Shown: positions 55,777 through 62,839 of the stretch, one piece after another | Position numbering within the stretch: position 1 is the stretch's first letter | How the letters are laid out: the number at the start of each line of letters is the position of its first letter | Assembly: GCA_054600435.1 (NCBI GenBank) | Contig: BAAIJX010000080.1 | Location: 1-64,000 of the forward strand | DNA from: Neophaeotheca triangularis | Taxonomy: Eukaryota | Direction: 5' to 3' | Length of the DNA: 64,000 bases | Notes under the pieces: model-generated | Seen by the model: the letters and a program-made list of their open reading frames with translations, nothing else | Database searches by the model: none | Told to the model about the DNA's origin: nothing | Position numbers and translations under genes: made by a program

Positions 55777-56847
55777 ATGCAACACGTGACCGATGGGCTG
55801 GTTGACGGCGACGGCTGGCTCTCGGACGAGTCGACCTTCTACGGTAACAGAAACAGCTTAAGGTACAGTATATTCACTGCTAATGAGACAGTAGGCGACA
55901 GCGCCACGCGAGAAATACTTGAAAGAAAAGCCCGGAGAGAATTGGTCTTGCCTCTCTTTCCGATGTCGTTGAGTGGACAGCCCAAGCCTTCCGCTACCTC
56001 AGTACCAAAAGCGATTGAAATTAAAGCCGACTCGGAGACTGAGGGAGAGCCATCGCAGGACGACGATTTTTCAGCTGATAAGCCGTCGTGGCAAAAGGGC
56101 TCCGAAACCATCGTCGAATTCTTGAGACGCCTCCCCGTCGCTGAGCCTTCTACTGCTCATGTAGGACCATGGCTTTGGGTGTACAATCCAAAAGCAAAGA
56201 CTCGTCGCAAGCCCGACGTACCCGGCTTTATTGATACTGGCTCTCAGCTTCTTCAGACATTCCAGGCTCGACGAACTCGTACAGAAAACGAGAACCCAGA
56301 CAAGAGCGCGGGCGTAATCACGCGGAAAATGGGACCCTTCTTGAAGCAATTACAGGACGACCTACTCGAGGCCGCAGTCGAGAGAAGCGTCACGTGCGGA
56401 AAATGGATGCTGTTCCCAAACCAAGACGATCTGCCTCGATACTGGCGCGTCGTCGCGGAAGCCACGGCAGAGGGTAGACTGGGATCCGCTTCGAAAGTGG
56501 CCACCTTCAACGCCAACGACAGTGGTTTCGGCACCCTCATCTGCGTGTACACTTGCGACTTCACCGACATATCCGACATTCGCCAAGTACTGGACGAGCT
56601 CGTGGCGCTTGACTTGCTTTCGTCGGGCGGTAAGCCGATCTATTACAAAGCTGACGCCTACACTTACCTTGATATCAAGTCGAACAATGCTTATACGTTG
56701 AAGGCGAGCTTGTACTCCAGCCATGAATGGGTGTCGAAGGACAACAAGAAAACGAAACCAAAGGCAGTGAAAGCGTCATTCTTCGGTAACAGTCTGCAAT
56801 CGAATGGTCGAGCGAAGAGTCATGTCGGTGATGGATATGAATTCTAG
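55777..56847 (+). CDS. DUF1917/Bles03-like (eIF4E-like fold) protein
   Basis: SDESTFYG, GPWLWVYNP, CGKWMLF, SASKVA, LICVYTCDF, IYYKADAYTYLDI; in-frame intron 55844-55894. Confidence 0.82.
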   Translation: MQHVTDGLVDGDGWLSDESTFYGNRNSLRYSIFTANETVGDSATREILERKARRELVLPLFPMSLSGQPKPSATSVPKAIEIKADSETEGEPSQDDDFSADKPSWQKGSETIVEFLRRLPVAEPSTAHVGPWLWVYNPKAKTRRKPDVPGFIDTGSQLLQTFQARRTRTENENPDKSAGVITRKMGPFLKQLQDDLLEAAVERSVTCGKWMLFPNQDDLPRYWRVVAEATAEGRLGSASKVATFNANDSGFGTLICVYTCDFTDISDIRQVLDELVALDLLSSGGKPIYYKADAYTYLDIKSNNAYTLKASLYSSHEWVSKDNKKTKPKAVKASFFGNSLQSNGRAKSHVGDGYEF

Positions 56848-57641
56848 ATTGGGTTATGATGATGCTTTCGCGTGTGCGGCTTGCTGTGGTTTTTCTCGGG
56901 GCTTGCGCGTAGAGAACGATAGAATTTTGCTTTCCAGCGAGCTGAATGGTCTGTTATGTGGGTCAGCACGCTCAATGCATCTCTATCCATTGCTCAGTAG
57001 CTGCCACCCTCGAGGCAAACAGATGGCATGAAGACACACTCGGGATGGATGGCCGAGAAGAACGGGAAGAAATTGGCCGCGCGAGTTTTATAGATACCCC
57101 AGCACTCACCAGCGCTTGCTCTTCTACTGAGTAGGACGATGATAACGAACGTCTGTTTAATAAAAGAATGTCTGTGCAAAAATGATCGAAATCCACTCGC
57201 GAGGAGGTAGAGACTGAAGAAAGGAAGAGAGCTCAAGAAAGAACAAAATCGACCCTCAAAAAAGAAGCAATTTCGGCAACTCATGTACATCTGCCCAGTC
57301 GTCGTGATAGTTGCAAAAAGCAAGCCCAGAATCGCTACGCAAACAGACACACTCCAGGGAAAAGCCTCGAAAGTCGTCTGGTAGCTAGCGCCGTCAAACA
57401 GTACGCGAGACTTGTAAACCGGAGACGCATCGACTTGCTCTCGCCATTCGTTTCCACATTCCCTTGAACGCCGAAACTCCGCGCTAAAATGTCACAAATG
57501 CTCTGTACCAGCCACAGCGTAGATCCCACCCGTCATTTTGACCGTCTTTGCCCGTCCTGGCCCATACCCAGACCAGAGAAGCACCCAAGTACGCCTCATT
57601 CTCGTCGTAAGCCATGCCATTGTCGTTCCCGCTTGGCCTTA

Positions 57642-60068
57642 CTAAGACCCTGGACTTCCTCCTAGCCAAGCATCCAAATCCGCTTGCTCGCCCATGTTCA
57701 GCGCCGGCATCTCATAGTCATAGTCCTCGTCGATGCGCCAGAGATCGTGCTGCTGCTCGTGGTGCGACGTAATCCTGGCACCAACGGAACCCGCGAAACC
57801 GTTCTTTTCGCCGAAGTTGAAGCTTCCGTGGCAGCTGGAAGGGACGTCGAAATCGCTGGTGAAGACGCTCGAGCCGGAACTGTCGCTCGCGCCTGGCGGG
57901 CTGAAAGCGTCGCCGCCTAAGCCGGGGTTTGTGTCGATGGCGCCAAAGTTGAAGTCTGCGGCGTCTGGGGCGAAGATGTCGTAAGCTTCGTCTGGGGGGC
58001 TAGAACCACCTTCGAAAATGTTGGCGGTGGTTTGGTTTTCGTTGGCGGTGGTTGTGGCGAGTTTGGCGTGAGGGAGCGGCGGTGAAGAGTGCACGCTCAG
58101 TGCGGAAGGTGAGACACAATTGTTTGCGTTGAGCGGTGCGCTGTTGAAATCGAAAGTTGAAGGGTCTTGCGATTTGCTGTCTGCGGGTGTCTTGTGTTGA
58201 GTGGTGTTCGCTGCGGGCGAGGTGCCACTCACCGGGGAGGTCGGTGGGGTGTCGCGCCATTGCTGCACCGTTGGGTCGAAGGAAGACTGGTCTAGCATGT
58301 CGATGAAAGCGCTTGCGTCGTAGTGGCCGCTGGTGTCTTCAGGTGTCGGCGGGAGACTGCTATGGCCTGAGCTGGAGCTAGCGTAGTGCTGCTGTTGACC
58401 TCGCTGAGAGGAATCAAGCTGTCGAGCGCGCTGCGCCTTCTCAGTCCTCTCATCTATGGTTGGGCGATCATCGCGGATCTTCCTTGGCCTGCCACGAGGT
58501 TTGCGCTCGCTTCGCGCCTTTTCAAAGCCTGGAAGGGCACCCTCACACATGCCACGCTGCCGGTGGCGCGTCAATGCGTCTTTGCGAGCAAACTTCATAC
58601 CACAAACGCATTCGGCGGACTTGTCGCCGCTGTGGATCTTTGCGTGGCGCTTGAGGTCGTGTTGACGGACGAAGCGCTTGCCGCACGGATTGCAAAGGTA
58701 GGGACGGTCCCCCAAGTGAGTCTGAATGTGAGCACGGATGTTCTCCTTACGCCCGAAAGACGAGGCGTTGCACTCAGGGTACATGCACTTCCATTTGTTG
58801 TCTTTGGGATCCTGCTCTGACATGTAATGTTGAATTTGTTCAGAGGTAACCTCGGTCCGGACAATACTGGCGTCGATGTCGAGAGCGTCCAGTGCAGCCT
58901 GGCGAGGCGACATGGGTCTAGGCGGGCCGTTGAGGAAGAATTCTTCATCTCCATCTGCCCCAGCAGTAGCTTGGAGCAGTATGTCTTGTTGACCCATAGT
59001 CGCCTCAGGATCCTCTTCATATAGTGTTGGCATGTGGGGAGTGCTCATTTGCGGTGGCGGGGAGGAGTTCGCAACAGAAGAAGAGTATGCAGAAGATGCA
59101 TAGCCTTGTCCATTCTCAACGAAGCCATTTTGGCCAAAGTTACCCTGAGAGTGGTTGTACGACGCCTCGGTTACCTGAATAGTGGGCTCCATTCCGTACC
59201 CTGAAGGCATAGGCGCAACATCGAACTGGTAGCTTTGACTCCGGGCGTGTTTGGCATGGGGAGGGGGAGGACTGGACCACACTTTGCAATTCTGCGGCGT
59301 GTTCGGCACCGTGTGGGACTGAGGGTGTCCAGAATAGGCTGTTGGTGTTTGTGGCCTAGCAAAGCCCATCGCCTGAAGTTGCTGCATGTTCATACCCGAA
59401 TTCACTGACATCTCGTCCATAGGCGGCTGAGAGTTGTCAAGGCGAGGTACGTTGATGCTGGATGTCGCGGGCAGTCCGGTCGGGTAATTCATACCAGCAT
59501 GGAGATTGGGCGATGCACCGTAGGTTGCCTTGTACCACTCGATGTGATGTTGCAACTCTTGGGCCGCTCTCTCGGGGTCCGGTACAGAGACATTCGATTG
59601 ATGTTGATGTTGGTGTTGGGGTGTATTTTGTTGCGGTTGTGGTTGCTGTGGTTGTTGAGACATTTGGTTTCCATCTTGTCGTCCGTTCAGTTGTTGTTGA
59701 AGATGGCTGGTGAAATCCATCGCTTGATGGAAGCCCGGCTGGGCCATGGGTCTGTGCTGCTGCGCTGCTTGCACGAAATGCTGTGGGTTTGATTGTTGTA
59801 GTCCTGTGTTAGTATCCATACTTACCATTGGCGACTGTAAATGTTGCTGGGGTTCCTGCTGATATTGAACCGGACGAAAGCCGTTGGGCGTCGTCATGCG
59901 GGTCAGACTTTGGTCGAGACTGAGACCGCGACGATGGCCGTGGTGGGATTGAGGTCGTCGGGGGTTCGTAGGAAGGGGAGTCGCCAGTATTGGAACTTCG
60001 AGCGATTGCTGACGGCGGTGTTGTTGGCGCCGCTTCTGGATGCTCGAATGGGGGTTGTTGGACAGCAT
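57642..60068 (-). CDS. Ace2/Swi5-like C2H2 zinc-finger transcription factor
   Basis: FGRKENIRAHIQTHLGDRPY, RFVRQHDLKRHAKIH, FARKDALTRHRQRGMC followed by the AT-hook-like RGRPRK; N-terminal HxRxxS motifs. Confidence 0.88.
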   Translation of the reverse strand: MLSNNPHSSIQKRRQQHRRQQSLEVPILATPLPTNPRRPQSHHGHRRGLSLDQSLTRMTTPNGFRPVQYQQEPQQHLQSPMVSMDTNTGLQQSNPQHFVQAAQQHRPMAQPGFHQAMDFTSHLQQQLNGRQDGNQMSQQPQQPQPQQNTPQHQHQHQSNVSVPDPERAAQELQHHIEWYKATYGASPNLHAGMNYPTGLPATSSINVPRLDNSQPPMDEMSVNSGMNMQQLQAMGFARPQTPTAYSGHPQSHTVPNTPQNCKVWSSPPPPHAKHARSQSYQFDVAPMPSGYGMEPTIQVTEASYNHSQGNFGQNGFVENGQGYASSAYSSSVANSSPPPQMSTPHMPTLYEEDPEATMGQQDILLQATAGADGDEEFFLNGPPRPMSPRQAALDALDIDASIVRTEVTSEQIQHYMSEQDPKDNKWKCMYPECNASSFGRKENIRAHIQTHLGDRPYLCNPCGKRFVRQHDLKRHAKIHSGDKSAECVCGMKFARKDALTRHRQRGMCEGALPGFEKARSERKPRGRPRKIRDDRPTIDERTEKAQRARQLDSSQRGQQQHYASSSSGHSSLPPTPEDTSGHYDASAFIDMLDQSSFDPTVQQWRDTPPTSPVSGTSPAANTTQHKTPADSKSQDPSTFDFNSAPLNANNCVSPSALSVHSSPPLPHAKLATTTANENQTTANIFEGGSSPPDEAYDIFAPDAADFNFGAIDTNPGLGGDAFSPPGASDSSGSSVFTSDFDVPSSCHGSFNFGEKNGFAGSVGARITSHHEQQHDLWRIDEDYDYEMPALNMGEQADLDAWLGGSPGS

Positions 60069-60196
60069 TTTCGTTTTGAGTGATCGGCTCTTCACACGAG
60101 TGTATGAATGCTAGAGATCACTTGTGGCAAGCTGAGTCCGGGGATGTGTTGTCGATGTACGAAGAGCAAGTCAATGCCTCCGCTTTGGATCCGGTA

Positions 60197-60251
60197 CTGT
60201 GCAGGCGGTCAGCGGTGGTGCCTCCCGAGATATGCTTCTCATTCAACGTAC
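60197..60251 (-). other. Predicted 55-nt intron in the 5'UTR of the Ace2/Swi5-like gene
   Basis: GAG|GTACGT...GCTGAC...GCACAG on the minus strand, ending about 130 nt upstream of ATG 60068. Confidence 0.6.
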
Positions 60252-60575
60252 CTCACGCAGTGCAAGCCGCGCTCGCCGGGCGCGTTGTGTTCGTTTAGCT
60301 ACACCAGTAGCGACAAGCCAATGTCTGTCACGAGGATGGGATCAAGTCGGCCTTCAGGCCTCGGAGCTGGAGGCGTTGGTAGAAGTTGCGGCCGGCGAAC
60401 TTGTGTCTCGAGGGTAGGTAGGCAGTGATAGGAGGTGTCTTTGCGGTTGTGAGAGGTTTAATGTGTGTGTGGTATGTTTGAGGTTTGAGGTGTAGTCTTT
60501 CGAAAAGAAAGAGGCTGGGATGAAGCGGCCTTGAGTGAAGGATGAAAGTCTGGCGATGTCAATGTTGATCTGTAG

Positions 60576-61402
<827 letters not shown>

Positions 61403-61657: not shown

Positions 61658-62839
61658 TCAGCCGAAATGCAGACACTCCTGGTTGAAAGCATGCAACAGC
61701 TTCAGGAAGTCCGTCTCGTCACACATCCTCGCACGCTTGTCGGCAAGCTGCACGTCGTCCTCCAAAACCTTCCTGACTTTTTCTCTCACAAGCTCGGCAA
61801 CCCTCCCTTTCTTCTTTCTGTTCGGGTTGCCCAGCGCCTTCTTCGCCTTGCGATCCGCCTCCTCCTTGAAGAAATCCGGCACGTCCTCGTCTTCATCCAC
61901 ATCCATGATCCCATCCCACTCCTCCTCAACCTGTTCGGCCCCACCATCCACATCCATTCCATCCGCCTCCCCTTGCTGCTCCAACGGACTATCATCCAGC
62001 ACGACATCGTTCTGCGCGCAAAAAGTCCTGTAGTTCCCCTCCAACATCTCCATAACACTCGTGGTCGCCAAGAACGCGCTCCTCAGAACGCGATTCTTCC
62101 GGACAAAACAGACCCGCAGCAACCCATCCCATTCCTCGTAACTGACCTGTGGCCGCGGGTTCTTCGGCTGAATCCTAACGACATTCGACTCGACCAACGG
62201 CGGCGGGTTGAAATTGTTCCTCCCGACCTTCATCACATGGCTGACCTTGGCCCACATCTGCGCGTTCACGCTCAGCCGGCTGTAAAGCCGCTCCCCGGGT
62301 CTCGCAAACAAACGCATCGCGAACTCCCGCTGGAACATGAGCACGCAAGTCCGTGGGCTCGGGCTCGTGGCTAGCAGCTTGAAAGTCAAGGGGCTTGAAA
62401 TCTGGTATGGTGTGTTGGAGATGCAGACGTCAAAGTACGGCAGCGTTTCCATCTTGATGACATCTCCCAATACCAACTCCAATCGCTTAGCGGCAGGCGT
62501 GCCTTGGAATCGCTTCGTGAGTTCGGCAGCCATGCGCGGATCTTGCTCGCAGGCTATGACCTTTTTCGCTTTTTCCAGAATGCGGGTTGTGAGGTTGCCC
62601 GTTCCCGGGCCGACTTCGAGGACGGTGTCGGATTGTTTGAGGTCGGCTTTGTCGACAATCGCTTGCGCAACACCGGGATTCTTGAGCATGTGCTGGCCTA
62701 TGTCGGTGTTCATTTTGAAGATGTTGTGAGCGGCTTTTTGCGCTTTGGCGGCTTTTTCGGTGGATTTGCTGTTGGTGTTGTTGCCGTAGCGGGCGGTTTT
62801 GGAGACGCCGCCATGGCTGGTCTTGGGTGTTTTTGCCAT
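61658..62839 (-). CDS. DIM1: 18S rRNA dimethyladenosine transferase Dim1
   Basis: GQHMLKNP, VLEVGPGTGNLT, ISNTPYQISSP, LMFQREFA, YSRLSVN; ATG 62839. Confidence 0.95.
   Translation of the reverse strand: MAKTPKTSHGGVSKTARYGNNTNSKSTEKAAKAQKAAHNIFKMNTDIGQHMLKNPGVAQAIVDKADLKQSDTVLEVGPGTGNLTTRILEKAKKVIACEQDPRMAAELTKRFQGTPAAKRLELVLGDVIKMETLPYFDVCISNTPYQISSPLTFKLLATSPSPRTCVLMFQREFAMRLFARPGERLYSRLSVNAQMWAKVSHVMKVGRNNFNPPPLVESNVVRIQPKNPRPQVSYEEWDGLLRVCFVRKNRVLRSAFLATTSVMEMLEGNYRTFCAQNDVVLDDSPLEQQGEADGMDVDGGAEQVEEEWDGIMDVDEDEDVPDFFKEEADRKAKKALGNPNRKKKGRVAELVREKVRKVLEDDVQLADKRARMCDETDFLKLLHAFNQECLHFG

Follow-up and report, generated by a model that had tools for sequence, protein, structure and literature searches.

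The closest described counterpart of the element reported here is the intron of PTC7 in the Saccharomycetaceae, which is retained in a large share of the messenger RNA (mRNA) and gives two isoforms, both present in RNA, that differ by a transmembrane helix (Juneau et al., 2009, per PMC7491326, a source drawn on in part). Exitrons, which are alternatively spliced intron-like stretches in annotated coding exons, have been defined by RNA evidence in Arabidopsis and human (Marquez et al., 2015, PMC4484396, also drawn on in part). Here we analyze a stretch of 64,000 nucleotides (nt) of Neophaeotheca triangularis DNA (contig BAAIJX010000080.1, positions 1 to 64,000; hereafter the window) in which the coding sequence of an Ace2/Swi5-like transcription factor contains an intron-like element of 45 nt, at 59781..59825 on the minus strand, that spells a consensus 5' splice site, a consensus branch site and an acceptor in the correct order. 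The host gene is an uninterrupted open reading frame of 808 amino acids (57642..60068, minus strand), and all coordinates below refer to the minus strand unless stated otherwise.

As in PTC7, the element stands in the reading frame, has a length that is a multiple of three, is free of stop codons, is conserved across species, carries perfect splice sites and is retained. The two differ in that only the retained form is seen here, in that the element measures 30-54 nt and has its branch site set against its donor, and in that branch site and acceptor outlive the donor in three clades. Exitrons share with the element their position as intron-like stretches within coding exons, but they were defined from RNA and the element is known here only in its retained form; the term exitron had no fungal occurrence among the matches listed. 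Another precedent is the decoy or competing 5' splice site, which blocks a branch site or 3' splice site close by; examples are the Rous sarcoma virus negative regulator of splicing and the pseudo-5' sites of the Drosophila P element. The likeness lies in an unproductively placed U1 site that interferes with neighboring signals, an interference that we infer here from spacing; the decoys, however, are viral or transposon-borne and helped by dedicated proteins, whereas the element belongs to a coding exon of a cellular gene, and its conservation extends across fungal classes. The host protein can be compared with Saccharomyces cerevisiae Ace2, a C2H2 factor controlled by Cbk1 that has conserved Hx[RK]xx[ST] sites (PMC4428629, as far as the part of that source used describes it); three such sites are conserved here, although the [YF]xFP docking motif of the S. 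cerevisiae protein is absent.

What we describe is a splice-signal module embedded in coding sequence, with an apparently self-interfering layout and very deep conservation, for which no counterpart in Ace2/Swi5 genes was found in the literature searched (titles and abstract openings). Codon-level comparison indicates that the module is real and selected. It is rare for synonymous sites to be fixed across fungal classes, and those found here spell three splicing consensus words within an open reading frame. Should the module act via the spliceosome, it would add a layer of post-transcriptional control, new to the literature searched, to Ace2/Swi5-like factors, which are central to fungal septation, conidiation and morphology, and it would provide a natural case for the minimal distance between a 5' splice site and a branch site and for the fate of a mutually exclusive pair.

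Codon-level conservation of embedded splice signals

Read in the direction of the gene, the signals begin with GTAAGT (59820..59825), a consensus 5' splice-site (U1) signal translated as V82-S83, and continue through the spacer ATGGA (59815..59819) to TACTAAC (59808..59814), a consensus branch-site signal with its branch A at 59809 that is translated as (D)T86-N87, and then to ACAG (59804..59807), whose proximal AG (59804..59805) lies 5 nt from branch A. This 22-nt cassette reads in frame as V82 S83 M84 D85 T86 N87 T88 G89, exactly as an earlier note on this DNA, made from the sequence alone, had described it. That note treated the 22 nt as the unit, with ACAG as its acceptor, and pointed out that their removal would shift the frame; it does, and the shifted frame stops after about 38 codons (by eye). 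The natural unit runs instead from GTAAGT to a distal CAG (59781..59783; Q96), located by codon conservation and an AG-poor tract, which sits 23 nt beyond the proximal ACAG and 28 nt from branch A; so delimited, the element comprises 45 nt, is in frame and stop-free, and encodes 15 codons (VSMDTNTGLQQSNPQ). It has the features of a U2-type intron in its 5' splice site (GTRNGT), in its branch site (CTRAY) and in a YAG that follows an AG-poor tract, and CTRAY is the branch motif of 91% of Fusarium introns (PMC5677156, in the part used). Dual coding after removal of the 22 nt was considered and rejected, given the stops that follow, after about 38 codons in this organism and, in loci with CAA GTA GCG, as a TAG after about 12-15 codons (by eye).

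On both strands of the 64-kilobase window, the perfect pattern GTAAGT..TACTAAC..YAG occurs once, and that occurrence is the 45-nt element. The looser pattern GTAAGT N0-30 ACTAAC N0-12 AG likewise matches the window once, and dinucleotide shuffling produces one match or more in 7 of 100 cases; the evidence of this one window for a cassette beyond chance is thus marginal.

Orthologues were gathered by scanning metagenome contigs with the alignment of the protein, which gave 80 loci. An N-terminal tblastn match at E<=0.001 was obtained for 59 of these, nearly all of the matches span the cassette region, and they reduce to 40 non-redundant sequences, window included, with 29-62% identity to the window across the first 135 residues; because the loci were found via uninterrupted tblastn matches, broken copies were possibly missed. 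In a tree with named NCBI proteins, the loci fall beside Chaetothyriales, Lecanoromycetes, Leotiomycetes and several Dothideomycete families, and the window adjoins Mycosphaerellaceae and Teratosphaeriaceae.

The codons of the signals are close to invariant in this set, against a background of much freer usage in the same genes. The cassette valine is GTA in 26/26 loci (12.5% of background Val codons), the serine AGT in 25/27 (7.3% of Ser codons), the threonine ACT in 34/34 (23% of Thr codons) and the glycine GGA in 35/38 (21% of Gly codons); the asparagine is AAC in 34/39, and the distal glutamine is CAG in 39/40 (51% of Gln codons), the exception being the Chaetothyriales-like locus L076, which has CAA. 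By way of control, between two and six codons are in use at each invariant column of HRRQxS and HRRGxS. Codon entropy was also compared along the gene from end to end, in 202 informative columns of 32 full-length sequences (Mann-Whitney test): the normalized value is 0.24 in residues 78-113 (18 columns) versus 0.77 elsewhere (184 columns; p=7.5e-10), and 10 of the 13 columns with codon entropy <0.15 fall within residues 78-113. The branch-site word [AG]CTAAC is found in 38/40 unique loci, including the seven that have no local donor, and signals persist where the amino acid is altered, as GCTAAC in L076 and as GTAAGC in L079. The cassette-less locus L062 shows the converse: its peptide there, LSTANPG, is much alike but is encoded by other codons (CTT TCG ACC GCC AAT). 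Because the signal survives amino-acid change and L062 retains the peptide with other codons, these comparisons indicate that purifying selection acts at these signals on the nucleotides and not on the protein. The earlier note had proposed that its reading would gain support if orthologues held GTAAGT and ACTAAC invariant at synonymous positions, and that pattern is borne out strongly across the 40 loci.

These data bear directly on the possibility that the codons are accidental, whether the cassette arose by chance or a VS..TN.G peptide motif alone is conserved. The shuffles do yield the pattern at times, and T-N and G are conserved as amino acids; however, neither chance nor protein-only conservation accounts for invariant codons whose background use is 7-23%, and L062 shows that a similar peptide can be kept with different codons. 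We count this explanation as refuted.

Two further features lie downstream of the branch site. From 10 nt past branch A to the CAG, the loci contain 5 AG versus 32.9 expected over 526 positions, in counts that are phylogenetically non-independent and in a tract that is A/C-rich overall. An AG at 5 or 8 nt from branch A is present in 35/38 loci. Taken across the tree, the signals have been kept in Dothideomycete-, Leotiomycete-, Lecanoromycete- and Chaetothyriales-like orthologues.

The donor is the part of the module that varies. Among the 40 unique loci, 26 have GTAAG[TC] near the branch site, five have GTACGG, seven are donor-less and two lack the branch site; GTAAGT has been lost or changed in 12 loci belonging to four Dothideomycete clades. 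In the five GTACGG loci, which are Teratosphaeriaceae-like, this word stands 18 nt before the branch site and is read in frame as V-R, and three of the five (L002, L019 and L007) have another ACTAAC, 7 nt ahead of the CAG, that produces the geometry of a normally proportioned 51-nt intron. The seven donor-less loci form three clades, adjoining Rachicladosporium, Elsinoe/Myriangium and Zymoseptoria, and in all seven a consensus scan and inspection by eye found no consensus-like GT within 60 or 150 nt upstream of the branch site. They nevertheless keep ACT AAC CTA G.., the AG-poor tract and the CAG, with CTA making up 8% of background Leu codons and ACT 23% of Thr codons. Among culturable fungi, Aureobasidium pullulans, Botrytis and Sclerotinia carry the element in full, and relatives of Zymoseptoria and Cladosporium carry its donor-less version. 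Because seven loci in three clades keep branch site, tract and CAG without a donor, the acceptor module is the core, and the comparison indicates that branch site and acceptor have a function independent of the local donor, which is a losable accessory.

In donor-bearing loci the distance from GTAAGT to CAG is 30, 33, 36, 39, 45, 51 or 54 nt, in every case divisible by three and free of stops; lengths are given after subtraction of 5 nt where the search pattern began at an overlapping GTACGG. Such overlaps occur in the clade of L028, L039, L050, L051, L059, L061 and their relatives, where AGT ACG GTA AGT contains GTACGG and GTAAGT 5 nt apart.

Geometry, transcripts and gene models

Three introns in the window served as the local reference. 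One is the 55-nt intron in the 5' untranslated region (5'UTR) of the same gene (60197..60251; GTACGT..GCTGAC..ACAG), established by an RNA contig junction. The other two, of 59 nt (60842-60900) and 56 nt (61257-61312), belong to a ubiquitin-ribosomal protein fusion gene on the plus strand (60820-61400), where their removal restores the reading frame and gives a complete frame of 154 amino acids. The earlier note's remark that other introns here measure 51 nt or more, and that the cassette is far shorter, agrees with these three. The 5'UTR intron has 42 nt from 5' splice site to branch A and 12 nt from there to its 3' end, and across all three the corresponding distances are 42-47 nt and 11-12 nt. 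In the 45-nt element, by comparison, 16 nt separate the 5' splice site from branch A and 28 nt separate branch A from the 3' end, so that, with these three introns as reference, both its length and its branch position fall outside the range of the organism. The element thus combines perfect signal sequences with a donor-branch distance shorter than that of every verified local intron. The gap between GTAAGT and ACTAAC is 5 nt here and 0-6 nt in most loci with GTAAG[TC], which places branch A 10-16 nt from the 5' splice site in most of them. At such spacing, U1 and BBP/U2 can hardly occupy both sites at once. The proximal AG at 59804 is probably too near branch A for use, since it lies 5 nt away and the three local introns have 11-12 nt; the distal CAG at 59781 is the likelier 3' splice site.

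Evidence from RNA comes from contigs of four metatranscriptome runs, representing two samples of one study; such contigs drop rare forms. Five public runs carry part of the stretch, and X1 and X2 are one sample. Record 5 of X1 (716 nt) has the junction 60252|60196, which leaves out the 55-nt 5'UTR intron (minus-strand GT..AG) and nothing else, and it then continues unbroken across ATG and cassette from 60196 as far as 59615. Record 12 of X2 (610 nt) spans 59604-60198, and its loose end is the end of exon 1, hence the same junction. In both RNA contigs that cover the place, therefore, the element is retained while the upstream intron has been spliced out, and it is read as 15 codons of the full-length 808-amino-acid protein. 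The 60196/60252 junction is the sole one in RNA contigs of this gene region: none was found at 59804, 59825 or 59781 in the two covering contigs from one sample, in which minor forms could be missed. The earlier note had assigned an upstream donor to a 5'UTR intron at 60251-60197 and had proposed splicing from that donor to 59804. The donor exists and is used, but in the contigs it joins 60196, the cassette is read through, and the proposed junction does not appear.

The contigs of X1-X3 differ from the window at 11 single positions (57300-59924; for example, 59924 G>T and 58120-58121 TT>GA), and the predicted protein P0001 differs from the window protein at one residue. The contig-window differences are strain-level variation between the source of the window and the sampled population.

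Public gene models disagree about the element. Intron-aware NCBI models end an intron at the distal CAG; for two of them, P0106 and P0008, comparison with L018 and L002 DNA served as a check. Exactly the element is removed in P0008, P0106 and P0110 (of 120 proteins), in P0123 and P0129-P0131, and in 12/67 of another set, whereas the P0224 model uses a later acceptor. JGI models marked DRAFT all keep the stretch in the sets examined, and among proteins from intron-unaware callers (Logan, ENA, JGI) none is without it. The disagreeing models are P0008, P0106, P0110, P0123, P0129-P0131, P0175, P0180, P0181, P0185-P0188, P0192, P0206, P0208, P0213, P0214 and P0224; in Aureobasidium, Helotiales, lichen fungi and Sordariomycetes, the last of which entered the analysis as proteins only, some models treat the element's 10-18 codons, or a longer stretch, as an intron, whereas others retain them. 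This is an annotation conflict in which the stretch resembles an intron to the programs; it is no proof of splicing. The element explains why public models conflict over whether these 10-18 codons belong to the protein.

One way to understand these observations is that the element is a self-contained mini-intron of the exitron or PTC7 type, a 45-nt intron from 59825 to 59781 that would be spliced inefficiently. Retention would give the 808-amino-acid protein and removal one with 15 residues fewer, the lost residues lying in the linker between the N-terminal NDR-kinase sites and a conserved QH..Q.AQQ.R.AQPG block. All three signals are conserved and correctly ordered, the tract up to the CAG is AG-poor, every donor-bearing locus has a stop-free length divisible by three, the second ACTAAC of L002, L019 and L007 restores a normal 51-nt geometry, and the intron-aware NCBI models remove exactly this stretch. 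Fusarium introns range from 42 to 529 nt, so that 45 nt exceeds the minimum for Fusarium core genes (PMC5677156, in the part used), and a precedent exists in yeast PTC7, whose retained intron keeps the frame, contains no stop and has sites that match the consensus perfectly (PMC7491326, in the part used). Yet the distance between donor and branch A is 16 nt here, and 10-16 nt in the majority of lineages with GTAAG[TC], as opposed to 42-47 nt in the three local introns, the totals of 30-39 nt are below any documented fungal intron length found, and L076 has CAA for CAG. Nor does a self-contained intron predict three donor-less clades that keep branch site, tract and CAG. The RNA contigs contain only the retained form, the spliced form of the element appears only in predicted gene models, and the intron-unaware callers keep the stretch throughout. 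On balance we regard a mini-intron as possible but doubtful.

The combination of perfect signals and crippled geometry could also mark a platform that is not meant to be spliced, to which U1, BBP/U2 or both would bind while the spacing blocks catalysis. In yeast, U1 and BBP have been proposed to keep unspliced RNA nuclear, and spliceosome-mediated decay exists. By analogy, the mRNA would be held in the nucleus, like one with a detained intron, or degraded, as in spliceosome-mediated decay, and the element would time or limit the production of Ace2. Retention of the element in mRNA whose other intron has been spliced is consistent with such a platform, as is the survival of the branch site without a donor. 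The conserved CAG and the AG-poor tract, however, point to a real choice for the second catalytic step, and we think a purely non-catalytic role quite unlikely.

A proposed pairing of an upstream donor with a distal acceptor

We consider it likely that the module is a selected splicing-signal module that acts via the splicing machinery, if the mini-intron, the platform and a third reading, developed here, are taken jointly; among the three, the evidence is nearly balanced. This third reading, which we favor only tentatively and hold to be well short of probable, is that the branch site, the AG-poor tract and the distal CAG constitute a 3' splice module for an upstream donor, with GTAAGT masking it. 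The only candidate donor seen is the RNA-verified one of the 5'UTR intron at 60251, and a joint from 60251 to the module would skip the exon that bears the ATG and the two N-terminal NDR-kinase sites. Since GTAAGT stands 5 nt ahead of the branch site, too close for simultaneous occupancy by U1 and BBP/U2, bound U1 would mask the module and make full-length mRNA the default product. The skipped form would start at M108 in this organism, without HRRQQS and HRRGLS, and would be non-productive in many other lineages, so that the general role of the module would be to set the amount of productive Ace2 mRNA and not to make one conserved short protein. Survival of branch site and acceptor in the donor-less clades fits pairing with a different, upstream donor. 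Candidate 5'UTR introns, as regular-expression predictions, are present in 17/40 loci, where about 34 of the 40 had at least 170 nt of upstream sequence.

The fate of the reading frame after skipping can be examined more closely. M108 (59745..59747), which opens the sequence MAQPGF, is the first ATG after the element and is in frame, and exon 1 as covered (60385-60252) contains no ATG (by eye). The earlier note had translation begin at MAQPGF once the upstream exon was skipped; this ATG is indeed the next one and in frame, but M108 is unconserved among the 23 aligned homologues, and the first ATG past the element shares the reading frame in 26/40 loci. Of the 14 loci that fall beyond the Dothideomycete-like clade in the tree, 13 have this ATG out of frame, and 12 of those 13 still keep the cassette. 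Because of these loci, a short kinase-insensitive protein, on the sequence comparison, cannot be the general function of the element. A conserved alternative start after the element was rejected for the same distribution, in which in-frame ATGs follow clades and are not general. We also rejected P0001 (701 amino acids, starting at M108) as an isoform: its start is the choice of a gene caller and brings no isoform evidence. The earlier note had further suggested that U1 bound at GTAAGT competes with branch-point recognition and so toggles between a kinase-regulated long isoform and a short one. Competition is mechanistically reasonable at gaps of 0-6 nt; the specific switch from 60251 to 59804 is unsupported and in part contradicted.

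Several observations weigh against pairing of the module with the upstream donor. The joint from 60251 to 59781 or 59804 is absent from the two covering contigs from one sample, which read through the element, and competition with the proximal 55-nt intron, whose signals are good and which is transcribed earlier, should rarely be won by a site 430 nt farther on. The start codon after the module is unconserved and often out of frame, as described above. By regular expression, a candidate 5'UTR intron is absent in 23/40 loci, and the introns of other loci are predictions only. The model leaves unexplained both the constraint on about 50 nt after the CAG and the conservation of the proximal AG at +5. 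Finally, a GTAAGT-to-CAG distance that is always a multiple of three suits the mini-intron, though it also follows simply from coding.

A bolder extension of the upstream-donor reading, which we advance as speculation and judge unlikely, is that of a self-blocking splice cassette ancestral to most filamentous ascomycetes, in which a perfect U1 site and a perfect branch site would be too close for joint occupancy, the choice between them would decide the product, and the supply of spliceosome components would thereby set the dose or form of a master regulator of cell separation. The AUG exon with its two NDR-kinase sites would be kept in one state and skipped in the other by the joint of 5'UTR donor and CAG; the skipped exon could be left in a lariat and might circularize via the same GTAAGT. 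Such a mechanism would have been kept for hundreds of millions of years.

The constrained island and the host gene

The element is part of a larger island of synonymous-site constraint, defined by codon entropy, that covers residues 78-113 (108 nt, 59730..59837) and extends about 12 nt before the element and about 50 nt after it. The downstream part, block B (59730-59780, residues 97-113), has the consensus CAG CAT ....TG CAA G.A.CG CAG CAG CA. AGA ... CAG CCG GGC. Within it, Ala is GCG in 24/24, Gln is CAA in 30/31 at one column and CAG in 30/30 at another, Pro is CCG in 35/38 and Gly is GGC in 35/39; one column has ATG, GTG or TTG in nearly all loci, with CTG only in the cassette-less L062. 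In the window sequence, GGTAAGTA and TACTAACC form near-inverted repeats (by eye).

These features raise the possibility that the whole 108-nt island is some other nucleic-acid element that merely resembles splice signals, such as a protein-binding motif in RNA or DNA, an internal promoter or an antisense feature. It would account for constraint on regions that should carry no splice signal, about 50 nt past the CAG and about 12 nt ahead of GTAAGT, and the near-inverted repeats GGTAAGTA and TACTAACC would be in keeping with it. Against this stand the spacing of the halves, which varies from 0 to 18 nt and so argues against a dimeric DNA site or a hairpin, and the identity of the three most conserved words, which are fungal splice consensus words in the right order. 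DNA-level readings (Fkh/Mcm1-type sites or a dimeric site) were dropped on account of the variable half-site spacing, and a conserved RNA structure over the island was rejected when RNAalifold gave -1.3 kcal/mol and one 3-bp helix only; Rfam has no match at E<=1 in 59500-60400. An element unrelated to splicing therefore strikes us as improbable.

The host gene itself is readily classified. Residues 445-479 (58632..58736) form the C2H2 zinc-finger region, matched by Pfam PF00096 (zf-C2H2; 31.9 bits versus a cut-off of 25.2) and PF13465 (zf-H2C2_2), and 1106 homologues at E<=0.001 carry source names such as SWI5, ACE2-like and metallothionein expression activator, which are annotations only. Three NDR/Cbk1-type consensus sites are present, as the earlier note had listed them, and all are invariant or nearly so in the 23 aligned homologues: HRRQQS (residues 17-22, 60003..60020) is nearly invariant, HRRGLS (residues 45-50, 59919..59936) is conserved, and in HARSQS (residues 274-279, 59232..59249), also conserved, R276, S277 and S279 are invariant, as is the preceding K273. 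That note's identification of HxRxxS as the Cbk1/COT-1 consensus agrees with the Cbk1 phosphorylation consensus Hx[RK]xx[ST] (PMC4428629, in the part used). The [YF]xFP docking motif has no match anywhere in the 808-amino-acid protein, and docking motifs are evolutionarily younger than the phosphorylation sites (same source, in the part used). We conclude from these matches that the protein is an Ace2/Swi5-like factor with predicted NDR-kinase sites.

A second small patch of codon constraint adjoins the start codon (60068 region), where the second codon is CTG in 37/38 loci and Ser at residue 8 is TCG in 21/25. The neighboring open reading frames are 61658-62839 on the minus strand (393 amino acids) and 55777-56847 on the plus strand (356 amino acids).

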